DNA of 64,000 nucleotides. Origin: Candidatus Roizmanbacteria bacterium. GTDB lineage: Bacteria > Patescibacteriota > Microgenomatia > UBA1406. This document shows, piece after piece, positions 1,774-53,391 of the stretch. Under the pieces are notes generated by a model. It ran no database searches and had not been told where the DNA came from. It saw nothing but the letters and a program-made list of their open reading frames with translations. Location: contig JANLHL010000016.1 in the NCBI GenBank assembly GCA_024654535.1, forward strand, positions 288,626 through 352,625, written 5' to 3'. The first letter of the stretch is position 1. Each line of letters starts with the position of its first letter. Position numbers and translations under genes: made by a program.

Positions 1774-2268
1774 TTATCGACAGAGATGCTCGATACGAGG
1801 TTGTACAAGAGCTATATAGTCATCCGATTTCATTGCGATTGAATAACTACGATCTCCTGCATTAAAAATTATCATCTCGTTTTTTAAAAGCTGAGGATCT
1901 ACCAACACATCTAAACCGAACAAGTTTCCAAAGGGTGGCACACCGCCTGGTTCGATACCTTTTGTAACATCTGCTACTTCTTCAGTCGTTGCAAAACGTA
2001 TATCTCGCACATTTAATAGTTTTTTTACTTTTTTCCCATCAAAACGACTGTCACCAGATAACACCAACATGACAAAAAACGGCTCAGTCCCTGATTTTTT
2101 AACCCGTACTATGAGCGCTTTCGCCCCTTGATTGAGTGTATAGTGACCTTCCCGAATATGTGCCGCTTCATAGCTTGTACGTACCGGTTCATGCTCAAAT
2201 GTTTCAAACCACAGACTGTGGTTTTTCAGCAACAAAAGTATAGTTTGAACTGTAGGATGATAGGTCAT
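1774..2268 (-). CDS. YbaK/EbsC-type aminoacyl-tRNA editing (deacylase) domain protein
   Basis: GGVPPFG motif and YbaK-like layout. The track start at 2310 is GTG and overlaps the upstream gene, so the first ATG at 2268 (MTYHP...) is preferred. Confidence 0.7.
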   Translation of the reverse strand: MTYHPTVQTILLLLKNHSLWFETFEHEPVRTSYEAAHIREGHYTLNQGAKALIVRVKKSGTEPFFVMLVLSGDSRFDGKKVKKLLNVRDIRFATTEEVADVTKGIEPGGVPPFGNLFGLDVLVDPQLLKNEMIIFNAGDRSYSIAMKSDDYIALVQPRIEHLCR

Positions 2269-36431: not shown

Positions 36432-36503
36432 GCGACTGTAGTTCAATGGATAGAATGGAGGTTTGCGGAACCTTTGATCCCAGTTCGACTCTGGGCAGTC
36501 GCA
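36432..36503 (+). tRNA. tRNA-Arg(GCG)
   Basis: GCGACTG-TA-GTTC-AATGGATA-GAAT-G-GAGGT-TTGCGGA-ACCTT-TGAT-CCCAG-TTCGACT-CTGGG-CAGTCGC-A. No encoded CCA. Confidence 0.85.
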
Positions 36504-36514
36504 CAAAAAAACCG
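36479..36514 (+). repeat. Direct repeat copy 1 (tRNA-Arg T-arm, acceptor 3' strand and 11-nt trailer)
   Basis: CCCAGTTCGACTCTGGGCAGTCGCACAAAAAAACCG, identical to 37257-37292. Confidence 0.9.
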
Positions 36515-37256
36515 AAAAATGAATTCTGAACGAATTGCTACACCACCTGTACCTGATCTCCGTTTTGAACAGATGTCATTTGGAGATAACCAAGTTAATC
36601 TTCTGGTGTTACCAAATTCTGCCGTTCTAACGACAAGTGGTCAGAACCAGTTAAGCAATATGAATTTTGGAGCAATCGATGCACTTGTATTCCCACACAC
36701 ACCCCCTCAAGCACACAGTAAAAGTGGAACTTTATACCCAAGTTTAGCACAAATGACCTATATTACTGATCGTCCATGGATAGTGGTTGATCCTCAAGCA
36801 TCAGATGATAGTTTTTTATTATATTCTGATGGACCATTTGTTGCAGCAGCAAGTGCAACTGTTAGCAAGGTAGGTATATCAATAAAAAAAGGACATATGG
36901 GACGCAGAGATTTTCTTGGACTCAGTGCATTCTTGACGGCTAGCCTTCTTACAGCACAATGGAATTCCGGACTTATTTCTCTTCCTCCTAACGTACAAGA
37001 TTTACGGCATACAGCCATCGCATGCGGACTTAAACAACTCTATGAGCAAAATGAAAACAACCTACTCGTAGTTGTTGAGGAAGCTGATGTGAACGGCATT
37101 CAGAAGTGCTTAACGACTGAAATTCCCGATACATTAGCAAAATTTTATGCCAGATTTAATTTACATATAAAGCAGTTCAACCGTATCGTATCCCAAGATA
37201 ATAGATGGCATCTGACATCCTCTTCTCCTTTGCTTTTATCTTGAAATTTAACTTTT
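36515..37256 (+). mobile_element. 742-bp single-gene insert bracketed by the 36-bp tRNA-3'-end repeats (att-like; integrated-element remnant or cassette)
   Basis: Perfect 36-bp direct repeats, one of them within the tRNA-Arg gene. No integrase in the window. Confidence 0.4.
36519..37244 (+). CDS. Hypothetical protein carried on the tRNA-Arg-associated insert
   Basis: The first 33 codons of the track ORF 36420-37244 are a read-through of the tRNA, so the first plausible ATG is 36519 (MNSERIA). An internal MGRRDFLGLSAFLTASLL segment occurs at codon 160 of the track ORF. Confidence 0.5.
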   Translation: MNSERIATPPVPDLRFEQMSFGDNQVNLLVLPNSAVLTTSGQNQLSNMNFGAIDALVFPHTPPQAHSKSGTLYPSLAQMTYITDRPWIVVDPQASDDSFLLYSDGPFVAAASATVSKVGISIKKGHMGRRDFLGLSAFLTASLLTAQWNSGLISLPPNVQDLRHTAIACGLKQLYEQNENNLLVVVEEADVNGIQKCLTTEIPDTLAKFYARFNLHIKQFNRIVSQDNRWHLTSSSPLLLS

Positions 37257-37292
37257 CCCAGTTCGACTCTGGGCAGTCGCACAAAAAAACCG
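37257..37292 (+). repeat. Direct repeat copy 2 (orphan tRNA-Arg 3' fragment)
   Basis: Identical 36-mer to 36479-36514. It lacks the 5' two thirds of a tRNA. Confidence 0.9.
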
Positions 37293-52464: not shown

Positions 52465-52692
52465 TGGACCCGAGGAGATTCGAACTCCCCACCCCTGCTA
52501 CCCGCCTTCACTATGAGTGGACTCGAGGGGAATCGAACCCCTAACCTCCGCAATGCGAATGCGGCGCTCTACCATTTGAGCTACGAGCCCAAGCTACGGC
52601 GGGCGCGGTGCGAATGCTTGCCCCGCCATAGTTTGGCATCTTCAGATGCAAAACGACGGAGGGCAGTGCTCTACCAAATGAGCTACGGGCCC
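52465..52692 (-). tRNA. Interrupted (outer) Ala-type tRNA gene: 36-nt 5' part, ~155-nt insertion, 37-nt 3' part
   Basis: Minus-strand 5' part is GGGCCCG-TA-GCTC-ATTTGGTA-GAGC-A-CTGCC-CTCCG. The 3' part is GT-AGCAG-GGGTG-GGGAG-TTCGAAT-CTCCT-CGGGTCC-A. The acceptor stem pairs with G3:U70. The anticodon cannot be assigned by eye. Confidence 0.6.
52518..52590 (-). tRNA. tRNA-Ala(CGC), complete, inside the insertion of the outer Ala-type tRNA
   Basis: GGGCTCG-TA-GCTC-AAATGGTA-GAGC-G-CCGCA-TTCGCAT-TGCGG-AGGTT-AGGGG-TTCGATT-CCCCT-CGAGTCC-A, with G3:U70. Confidence 0.9.
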
Positions 52693-52704
52693 GTATCATT
52701 GGGT

Positions 52705-52710
52705 ATTATA
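52705..52710 (-). promoter_or_regulatory. TATAAT -10 box, 12 nt upstream of the nested tRNA-Ala locus
   Basis: Minus-strand reading is ...TTGACATTTGAACTTGGATATTTCTAATTTAG-TATAAT-ACCCAATGATAC-GGGCCCG. Confidence 0.4.
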
Positions 52711-52722
52711 CTAAATTAGAAA

Positions 52723-52797
52723 TATCCAAGTTCAAATGTCAAATAGCAGAATTGGACATTGGAATTTTGATATTCATTGGATATTGGATATTGGATA
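52723..52797. repeat. TTGACA/TTGGATA repeat block with both orientations present
   Basis: The left part carries reverse-oriented TATCCAA and TGTCAA. The right part is TTGGACATTGGAATTTTGATATTCA-TTGGATA x3. Confidence 0.65.
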
Positions 52798-52800
52798 TTT

Positions 52801-53391
52801 CTACAGTACCAAAACCCCTATGACTCCTAGTGCAATAAGGCTGAACGCTACAATACCAAATGTCCATTGACCCCCAAAGCCTGTTTGTACAATTGCTGTC
52901 GGGGTAGGAGTATTGGTAACTACTGCAGGCGGAGTAGTCGGCACCGGAGTAGCGGTCGCAACGGGAGGTGTAGGCGTTGGTGTAGTTACCGGTGCAACAG
53001 TACAAAGCTCAGTAGAACCTGGTCCTGAGGCAATCAGTTTGAATTTAACTTTTGCAAACGTACCAGTGCCCGATTTTGCTGAAAGGTTCGTACCCGTGAG
53101 TGTCACAACCGTAGCGCTTGGACTTGCCGAAACACTGTTGAAAAAATCTCCAGGTGTCGTCGATACGTACTGCAAATACTGAGTATCAAATGTCACCGCA
53201 GCAGCCCCATCGGTAAGCGCCTGTCCCTGTGTATCGACTGTAATTGTCCATTCATACTCCTGCCCATTCACCACCTGCCCAGACGGGCCTGTGATACCGT
53301 AATACACAGCCTGTGCAGAAGTGCAAAAAAATACGAGCGAAATCGCTATAAACAAACCAAATATACATAAACTCCGTCTGATATATTCCAT
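52801..53391 (-). CDS. Cohesin-domain-like secreted protein with a PT linker and C-terminal TM anchor
   Basis: Signal peptide (LCIFGLFIAISLVFFCTSAQA) and a cohesin-like beta-domain pattern (AAAVTFDTQYLQYVSTTPGDFF...GTGTFAKVKFKLIASG). The TPTPTPP linker precedes the hydrophobic C-terminus. Confidence 0.55.
   Translation of the reverse strand: MEYIRRSLCIFGLFIAISLVFFCTSAQAVYYGITGPSGQVVNGQEYEWTITVDTQGQALTDGAAAVTFDTQYLQYVSTTPGDFFNSVSASPSATVVTLTGTNLSAKSGTGTFAKVKFKLIASGPGSTELCTVAPVTTPTPTPPVATATPVPTTPPAVVTNTPTPTAIVQTGFGGQWTFGIVAFSLIALGVIGVLVL

Follow-up and report, generated by a model that had tools for sequence, protein, structure and literature searches.

The nested tRNA-Ala locus

We analysed a 64-kb stretch of DNA (64,000 nucleotides in all, referred to here as the window) from a metagenome-assembled genome (MAG) of Candidatus Roizmanbacteria, and identified within it a tRNA gene lying inside another tRNA gene with the same anticodon. 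The nested unit covers 228 nucleotides (nt) of the minus strand, between positions 52465 and 52692, and appears to be a single transcription unit in which a resident tRNA-Ala(CGC) gene has been split by two insertions, the second of which houses a complete inner tRNA-Ala(CGC). The host, which has a GC content of about 40%, is a bacterium of the candidate phyla radiation (CPR) and not an archaeon, and the genes adjoining the locus, which encode MreC, an MreD-like protein and PolX with a PHP domain, are likewise bacterial. Since the host is bacterial, the default expectation of protein-catalysed tRNA splicing is removed.

A TATAAT box of the -10 type (52705-52710, minus strand), read from the sequence 12 nt upstream of the outer 5' end, is the presumed promoter for the entire nested unit. 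The same hexamer is found 9-12 nt upstream of the tRNA start in three relatives (L001, L002 and L004). A consensus scan found no promoter-like site inside the insertions, and the mreC promoter was the sole informative result of the promoter and terminator scan. Directly upstream of the presumed promoter, at 52716-52804, a 13-14-nt AT-rich inverted repeat (TTAGAAATATCCAAG … TTGGATATTTCTAC) surrounds three tandem ATATCCA units; in Rfam this region gave weak, spurious matches to miRNA families.

The outer gene begins with piece 1 (nt 1-29, 52664-52692, minus strand, as are all features of the locus), which comprises the 5' strand of the acceptor stem, the D arm and the first 3 nt of the anticodon stem, and which is identical to nt 1-29 of the uninterrupted gene found in L001 and L261-263. 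Insertion 1 (52617-52663), a GC-rich hairpin of 47 nt (CCCTCCGTCG...CTATGGCGGGGCAAG), then breaks up the outer anticodon stem within its 5' strand. It is free of cargo, has a predicted folding energy of -20 kcal/mol, and has a boundary that is uncertain by ±1 nt owing to a shared GC dinucleotide. The hairpin is missing from L001 but found in L002 and L084, and a shorter homologue occupies the same site in L112. Outer piece 2 (nt 30-37, CATTCGCA, 52609-52616) supplies the end of this stem strand and the loop as far as A37; it holds the anticodon CGC and matches L001.

Insertion 2 (108 nt, 52501-52608) follows at position 37/38, and only 35 of its nucleotides are not tRNA. Its left end consists of a degenerate arm, CCGCGCCCGCC, and the spacer GTAGCTT (52591-52608), and resembles the family terminus CCTGCCCGCCG described below. 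Its right end consists of the spacer CTCATAGTGAA and a degenerate arm, GGCGGG (52501-52517). The two arms form an imperfect inverted repeat in which GCCCGCC on the left pairs with GGCGGG at 52501-52506, and deletion of 52501-52608 rejoins A37 to U38 as in L001. Outer piece 3 (nt 38-73, 52465-52500) provides the 3' strand of the anticodon stem, the variable loop, the T arm, the 3' strand of the acceptor stem and A73.

Between the arms of insertion 2 lies the inner tRNA-Ala(CGC) (73 nt, 52518-52590), a complete cloverleaf with G3:U70, A73, all 21 of 21 stem pairs intact and no encoded CCA. It was called by ARAGORN (52517-52590) and by Rfam (tRNA, 52518-52590, 70.4 bits), which bears out the initial annotation of an intact tRNA-Ala(CGC) within an interrupted Ala tRNA gene. 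The minus-strand strings quoted in that annotation are also present, at 52692-52657 and 52501-52465, and the acceptor strands GGGCCCG and CGGGTCC pair with G3:U70, as it stated. Judged by its cloverleaf, its identity elements and the structure-preserving changes between relatives, the inner copy has the features of a functional tRNA and is presumed to be the working gene. Run in intron mode on the window, ARAGORN located the outer Ala span but interpreted it wrongly, as a Gln(CTG) gene containing a 148-nt intron; lowering the threshold yielded many spurious calls. A third tRNA layer, considered on account of the Ala spacer GCCCGCCGTAGCT, was abandoned after the family termini became known.

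The outer gene in relatives

Using MreC and PolX as anchors, we fetched the same locus from relatives. Four of them (L001 and L261-263; MreC 75% and PolX 83% identical to the window) carry an uninterrupted tRNA-Ala(CGC) gene, GGGCCCGTAGCTCATTTGGTAGAGCACTGCATTCGCATTGCAGGGGTGGGGAGTTCGAATCTCCTCGGGTCCA, in the same place, flanked by the same upstream TATAAT and the same downstream hairpin. When the three outer pieces of the window were joined in silico, the product was identical to the L001 gene at 72/73 positions and was called by ARAGORN as tRNA-Ala(CGC). The sole difference is U39A in piece 3, which creates an A31·A39 mispair. The 5' strand of the outer anticodon stem is thus CTG|CA, split by the hairpin (52663-52617), and the anticodon loop is TTCGCAT, split at 37/38 by the insertion at 52608-52501. 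The initial annotation had parsed this arm as a CTGCC/AGCAG stem with a CTCCGGT loop and the anticodon CCG. That parse was mistaken, since comparison with L001 gives CGC, and the CTCCG string taken for part of the loop is actually the start of the hairpin insertion that L001 lacks.

The double insertion of the window is also present in L002 and L084, which derive from two independent samples and show no difference within the unit. The 3' part of the nested Ala locus was found in L259, where the contig ends within the locus. In L259 (10440-10556, minus strand), the closest extra relative, the inner Ala tRNA carries the compensatory change C28G/G42C, AT-rich sequence stands in for its 5' third where the contig stops, and an additional CCA is found at the outer 3' end; these oddities reflect either a further insertion or a contig-end artefact.

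More distant relatives (L004-006, MreC 68% identical) have a plain gene of the inner type. The inner tRNA-Ala of the window shares 92% identity with the plain tRNA-Ala(CGC) gene of the L004 lineage and 81% with the outer gene, and is therefore a different allele and not a local duplicate. The initial annotation had named, as one refuting outcome, relatives that conserve only the inner tRNA-Ala amid unrelated flanks; the result of this check was mixed, as L004-006 keep the inner type only and L001 and L261-263 the outer type only.

A family of tRNA-carrying elements

The same layout is found in a second locus of the window, on the plus strand, as the initial annotation had pointed out for 21908-22096. 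Here an outer tRNA-Pro(CGG) is divided into a 5' piece (nt 1-36, 21908-21944) and a 3' piece (22060-22096) by an element (21945-22059) with the structure CCTGCCCGCCG-spacer-inner tRNA-Pro(CGG)-spacer-GGCAGGCGGG, an exact match to the family termini. The inner tRNA-Pro(CGG) was called by ARAGORN at 21966-22042 and has an encoded CCA. Removing exactly 21945-22059 restores a perfect tRNA-Pro(CGG), and the two copies share 95% identity. The Pro insertion is a perfect member of the family and the Ala insertion a degenerate one, and within the window the family ends occur only at these two nested loci.

The Ala and Pro insertions have in common a GC-rich left end, CCnGCCCGCCG, and right end, AGGCGGG, and these formed the basis of the patterns used for database scans. 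In low-GC DNA, the metagenome scan gave at least 27 loci, and the genome scan at least 13, in which the ends exactly enclose a complete tRNA; this makes approximately 40 or more further nested loci in CPR DNA, a few of which are repeat assemblies of one locus. The remaining matches were chance matches in GC-rich sequence, and a scan of viral contigs with the first pattern gave five matches, all of them chance, in GC-rich phages. The inference in the initial annotation that a one-off rearrangement is unlikely is therefore upheld, the architecture belonging to a widespread family.

The cargo tRNAs represent at least ten amino-acid types: Arg (TCG, CCT, CCG, TCT), Val (CAC, TAC), Thr (GGT, CGT, TGT), Ile (TAT), Gly (CCC, TCC), Gln, Pro (TGG), Cys, Trp and Ala. 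The named sources include Shapiro-, Ames-, Woyke-, Portnoy- and Saccharibacteria, together with unclassified Patescibacteria. Seven low-GC contigs with elements of the CPR type (L154, L157, L189, L206, L215, L223 and L247) are titled as MAGs of Gammaproteobacteria or Desulfotomaculum, and these may be mis-binned or mislabelled.

In the 32 tabulated tRNA-carrying loci, the elements are 102-122 nt long. Twenty-three have the canonical ends 5'-CCTGCCCGCC(G)…GGCAGGCGGG-3' and nine have the ends flipped, 5'-CCCGCCTGCC…(C)GGCGGGCAGG-3', with the orientation of the cargo and of the outer tRNA unchanged. The ends pair from the first to the last nucleotide, forming 10 bp that include an invariant C·A and G·U, followed by three covarying pairs.

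The same ends also bound intergenic elements of about 100 nt with a variable, AT-rich, non-tRNA interior, for which no Rfam family was matched, and which occur in several copies per MAG. Two MAGs have at least four copies each (L142, L195, L227 and L251 in one; L206, L215, L223 and L247 in the other). Conserved ends, a variable interior and several copies per MAG are the signature of a small non-autonomous repeat element, for which a tRNA is one kind of cargo. A 20-nt palindrome without cargo, CCTGCCTGCCGGCAGGCAGG, is found within two outer genes (L082 and L157).

Other small GC-rich hairpins, of the form tCCGCC-aga-GGCGGAt or CCCGCC-aaa-GGCGGG, recur in CPR DNA, both in outer genes (L034, L040, L041, L085, L086, L111 and L212) and between genes (L171 and L222), and may constitute a related repeat family without cargo. 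In L157 (1571-2013, plus strand) a tRNA-Pro(TGG) is nested in an outer Pro relic through a different, longer insertion whose ends are the AT-rich inverted repeats GCATTTCTAAGTTTTTT and AAAAAACAAGAAATGC, so that nesting is not confined to the GC-rich family.

Exact boundaries and matching anticodons

Exact deletion of the element restored an outer tRNA that ARAGORN recognised, with the anticodon of the cargo, in 15 of 33 loci, while in the remaining 18 the outer gene has further lesions. The inner and outer anticodons are the same in every locus with a rebuildable outer gene (n=15). When the deletion was shifted within ±4 nt, three of the 15 loci could be restored by the zero-shift deletion only. 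Because the zero-shift deletion restores the tRNA, the insertion involves neither duplication of the target nor loss of target bases. The junctions fall after nt 21-24 of the outer tRNA (D loop or its edge), after nt 31-37 (anticodon loop, often at 35/36) and after nt 54 (T loop).

State of the outer copies

In the 15 rebuilt pairs, unpaired stem positions numbered 12 in the outer copies and 2 in the inner copies, with 315 pairs examined in each (Fisher p=0.012). The outer stems are also richer than the inner ones in G·U pairs and have more deviant T loops. More than one excision, owing to extra hairpins, palindromes or other lesions, would be needed to repair 16 of 31 outer genes, as against 0 of 78 stand-alone genes (p=5e-11). 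The outer Ala copy of the window does not have the properties of a functional tRNA gene, as it bears two insertions, including a differently-ended hairpin inside the anticodon stem, and retains the A31·A39 mispair after joining. We know of no bacterial route for removing such insertions from tRNAs. Between the window and L002, both changes in the outer pieces break pairs (in L002, G51A in piece 3); both changes in the inner tRNA keep the structure, one falling in the D loop and the other converting G-C to G-U.

Individual loci display more severe damage. The outer 5' half has been lost in L112, a distant Ala nest with a homologous hairpin and element. In L122 the outer Arg body around the element at 1863-1972 (plus strand) now has the anticodon CCA (Trp) and a 1-72 mispair, and such an Arg-type body would be harmful if expressed as a tRNA. 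In L047 one strand of the outer T stem has been overwritten by inner sequence, with loss of pairing. Multi-layer nests were found as well. L083 (minus strand, around the element at 2705-2811) is a triple tRNA-Arg(TCG) nest in which the halves of the middle layer fit badly. L253 (1-240) is a triple tRNA-Pro(CGG) nest orthologous to the Pro locus of the window; in it even the counterpart of the inner tRNA-Pro in the window has been interrupted, and the T loop is missing from the outermost 3' piece. The older layers of these two nests are chimeric, re-interrupted or partly deleted.

Interrupted genes were further sought in 66 low-GC loci that amount to 505 kb and contain 113 intact tRNAs. All 18 of the 18 interrupted genes contain an inner tRNA; one apparent exception was an N-gap in the assembly. 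No cargo-less insertion was found in a stand-alone tRNA gene by this screen, which covered about 0.5 Mb and required an intact T arm and a matching acceptor stem. The absence of cargo-less copies from stand-alone genes counts against the ends being splice signals, which ordinary tRNA genes should tolerate. Deleting every GC-rich hairpin with a perfect stem in the 505 kb brought to the surface only chimeras of inner and outer genes and class II variable arms.

A probable mini-element that disrupts and replaces its target gene

We consider the most probable explanation, with a probability of about 0.62 on the sequence evidence, to be a mini-element that disrupts a tRNA gene and replaces it at the same time, such that the working gene is the inner tRNA and the outer halves persist as a relic in decay. 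Elements of this kind would land exactly in the loops of tRNA genes without target duplication. Since insertion ruins the gene, the copies seen in tRNA genes would be those whose cargo is a tRNA with the same anticodon. Transcription would start at the resident promoter and run through outer piece 1, the hairpin, piece 2 and the left arm, and RNase P together with 3' processing would free the inner tRNA, to which CCA would be added post-transcriptionally in the case of Ala, whereas it is encoded for Pro. The outer pieces would be discarded as leader and trailer and would slowly decay. The element would be tolerated in an essential gene solely through its replacement copy, on which the host would afterwards depend, and new elements could invade the current inner copy and so give rise to multi-layer nests.

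The initial annotation had implied an outer intron-containing gene with a mature product. The bacterial host, the lack of fit to bulge-helix-bulge or group I introns (see below) and the comparative evidence point instead to a decaying relic.

Several observations weigh against this explanation. It offers no route by which a tRNA could be captured between the arms, and no ORF (open reading frame) was found between paired ends in the fetched loci, nor a transposase or an autonomous copy. Many outer genes, including the outer Pro gene of the window, are still perfect cloverleaves, and the outer stems of L078 and L082 differ by a compensatory C28G/G42C. The narrow reach of the 505-kb screen also belongs here. 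Above all, the nested unit, with hairpin, spacers and outer pieces included, differs between the window and L002 at 7 of 228 nt (3%), whereas third positions of mreC differ at 77 of 232 (33%) and the 60 nt upstream at approximately 46%. Similarly, the elements of L078 and L082 are 94% identical, whereas the flanking genes are 71-74% identical. Drift would be expected in a relic passed on vertically, and our explanation therefore needs either a recent exchange of alleles or a constraint on the whole precursor.

The simplest reconciliation may be that the nested alleles are younger than the split of their hosts and have moved between relatives by homologous recombination. The conserved tRNA halves (29 and 36 identical nt here) could serve as recombination arms. 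Spread by recombination would account both for the occurrence of a given cargo at the same site in different hosts and for the chimeric middle layers. Conservation would also result from selection on the whole precursor or from genuine splicing, and both are therefore retained as rival explanations.

Alternative explanations

In the first of these, the outer gene makes no tRNA but its halves and the helices are under selection as a scaffold for folding or processing, for example as a processing stem like those flanking rRNAs, or as insulation that prevents the leader from mispairing with the inner tRNA. Such a role would account for the roughly tenfold stronger conservation of the non-tRNA parts compared with neutral sites (5/155 vs 33%, p=2e-20) and for the predicted fold of the unit, in which the outer halves pair with each other, the arms of the element pair and the inner cloverleaf stays free (z=-4.6). 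However, L112 and L253 have kept the inner tRNA despite loss of, or severe damage to, the outer halves, and the L001 and L004 lineages have the tRNA gene without any scaffold. Conservation is moreover as strong at unpaired spacer positions as at paired ones, a pattern more in keeping with recent common ancestry than with structural selection. We regard the scaffold as unlikely.

Genuine splicing is a doubtful alternative. The insertions would then be a new class of bacterial tRNA intron, cut at the base of the CCUGCCCGCC/GGCAGGCGGG helix and followed by ligation of the exons, with the excised piece maturing to the inner tRNA, so that two tRNAs sharing an anticodon, one "exonic" and one "intronic", arise from one transcript; excision might be aided by RNase P and RNase Z as they free the embedded tRNA. 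In its favour, the boundaries are precise to a single nucleotide, a tRNA is regained on clean removal, insertions in tRNA genes are confined to loops of the RNA, and the termini are invariant across distant CPR lineages, down to the C·A mismatch and the G·U pair. The many perfect outer genes, the compensatory change between L078 and L082 and the strong conservation of the whole unit can be read in the same way, and group I introns at 35/36 are frequent in tRNA genes of Patescibacteria (PMC13011429). On the other hand, cargo-less copies with the same ends do occur inside outer genes but in none of the stand-alone tRNA genes of the 505-kb screen, and outer genes exceed inner ones in mispairs, truncations, anticodon changes and further insertions. 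The hairpin in the outer Ala gene, with its different ends, would demand a second splicing signal. The family ends also bound intergenic repeats, where splicing would have no role, and they occur in both orientations relative to the tRNA. Finally, no bulge-helix-bulge geometry was found by hand parsing, and no intron or ribozyme family was detected in the Rfam scans.

Local rearrangement without a mobile element, by duplication of a tRNA followed by deletions or gene conversion, is very improbable. The 95% identity of the two Pro copies would suit it, but the inner and outer Ala genes are different alleles (81% identical), the ends are shared with approximately 40 or more other loci and with non-tRNA repeats, and the same architecture recurs for at least ten amino-acid types in many lineages.

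The initial annotation had also speculated that the outer gene is a tRNA with Ala identity and the Arg anticodon CCG, inserting Ala at CGG codons; this follows from the naive joining of 52657 to 52501 only and can practically be dismissed, as the L001 loop is TTCGCAT, CTCCG is the start of a hairpin, and with both insertions removed ARAGORN returns an ordinary tRNA-Ala(CGC). An assembly artefact, such as the chimeric joining of strain variants at a tRNA gene, might be suspected because the source is a MAG, but is hardly credible given that the nested Ala locus was recovered from independent samples and assemblers (L002 and L084, and in part L259), that dozens of analogous loci come from unrelated projects, and that the ends of the element are unique sequence which an assembler would not create.

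The tRNA-Arg locus of the window

A tRNA-Arg(GCG) gene lies at 36432-36504 on the plus strand of the window, and its 3' end together with the following 10 nt (36479-36514) is repeated exactly at 37257-37292. The two 36-nt repeats bracket about 742 bp with one ORF of 241 amino acids (36519-37244) that has no Pfam match. The region 36432-37292 looks like the att-type footprint of a small element integrated in the 3' end of the tRNA-Arg gene, which would be a classical integrative-element footprint, in contrast to the nested loci. Bacteria usually use an ACG (inosine) anticodon for Arg; the GCG anticodon of the window is likewise present in the relatives L261-263 (at approximately 848-921).

Implications

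The observation is more interesting at the level of the family than at the single Ala locus. If our explanation is correct, a selfish passenger of about 100 nt survives in an essential single-copy gene by carrying a spare copy of it, and the host cannot shed the element except by precise excision. It would also explain the horizontal replacement of tRNA alleles in CPR bacteria and the existence of nests within nests. The exact, loop-specific and duplication-free insertion points to an insertion or excision activity in CPR bacteria. Should splicing prove true instead, it would represent a new bacterial RNA-processing pathway and a major finding.

There are consequences for annotation, as intron-aware finders miscall the outer genes and a naive reading suggests recoding. 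In addition, tRNA counts in reduced genomes could be raised or skewed by pseudo-tRNA halves.

Comparison with known systems

From general knowledge, the closest resemblance in build is to miniature inverted-repeat transposable elements (MITEs), REPINs, the palindromic elements of Rickettsia and the GC clusters of yeast mitochondria, which are likewise about 100 nt long, non-coding and GC-rich in an AT-rich genome. Elements of the MITE and REPIN kind also have inverted ends, a variable interior and several copies per genome, and can sit inside genes. The present family is short and non-coding, has terminal inverted repeats and is dispersed in multiple copies. In contrast to them, however, it targets tRNA loops and carries a complete tRNA gene whose anticodon is that of the invaded gene. 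Classical MITEs are flanked by a target-site duplication. There is none here, which fits the element types that insert without duplication but does not identify one, and no partner transposase is known for the family.

Archaeal tRNA introns and split or tri-split tRNAs provide a second comparison, in that they too involve short insertions in the D, anticodon and T loops, sometimes several per gene, with 37/38 being the position of the Ala element. Archaeal introns are recognised by the endonuclease EndA through a bulge-helix-bulge, in which a 4-bp helix lies between two 3-nt bulges, one on each strand, and splicing takes place within the bulges. No such motif could be fitted by hand, in several registers, at Ala 37/38 or Pro 36/37. 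At the Ala junction, no pairing is possible between loop nt 32-35 (UUCG) and the four nucleotides just before the 3' site (GGCG). Across the family, the first nucleotide of the putative intron pairs with its last, which places both junctions at the base of one helix. The two junctions thus face each other at the foot of an ordinary helix, it is the sequence of that helix and not a geometry that is conserved, and the host is bacterial.

Group I introns have a P3-P9 core and are usually at least 200 nt long; a U ends the 5' exon and a G ends the intron. In the elements described here the 5' exon ends in A (Ala) or G (Pro), and the final G, though present, is not informative. No intron or ribozyme family was found in the window by Rfam, either at the gathering threshold or at E≤10. 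The group I introns of Patescibacteria tRNA genes (PMC13011429) occur in the same host group and favour the same region, many of our elements lying at 35/36, but the insertions of 108-115 nt, which include a tRNA of 73-77 nt, leave no room for the core.

An RNA gene housed within a tRNA insertion has a precedent in the C/D box small RNA (sRNA) of the archaeal tRNA-Trp intron, and twintrons similarly place like within like. Here, by contrast, the insertion houses a tRNA that shares the anticodon of its host gene, and that gene has probably ceased to function. Insertions in the rRNA genes of CPR bacteria have been reported (PMC11270868). In the literature, of which our coverage was incomplete, we found no prior description of tRNA genes nested in cognate tRNA genes.

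The integrative elements that target tRNA genes (phages, integrative and conjugative elements and genomic islands) follow the same logic as the nested loci, since the element brings with it the sequence that keeps the tRNA available. These elements carry the displaced 3' part of the tRNA, whereas the element here brings a whole tRNA. It is also only about 110 nt long, has no integrase or other ORF, and is flanked not by a direct att repeat but by both complementary halves of the gene. By analogy, therefore, the element would work most like a cross between a palindromic mini-repeat and a tRNA integrative element that restores its target.

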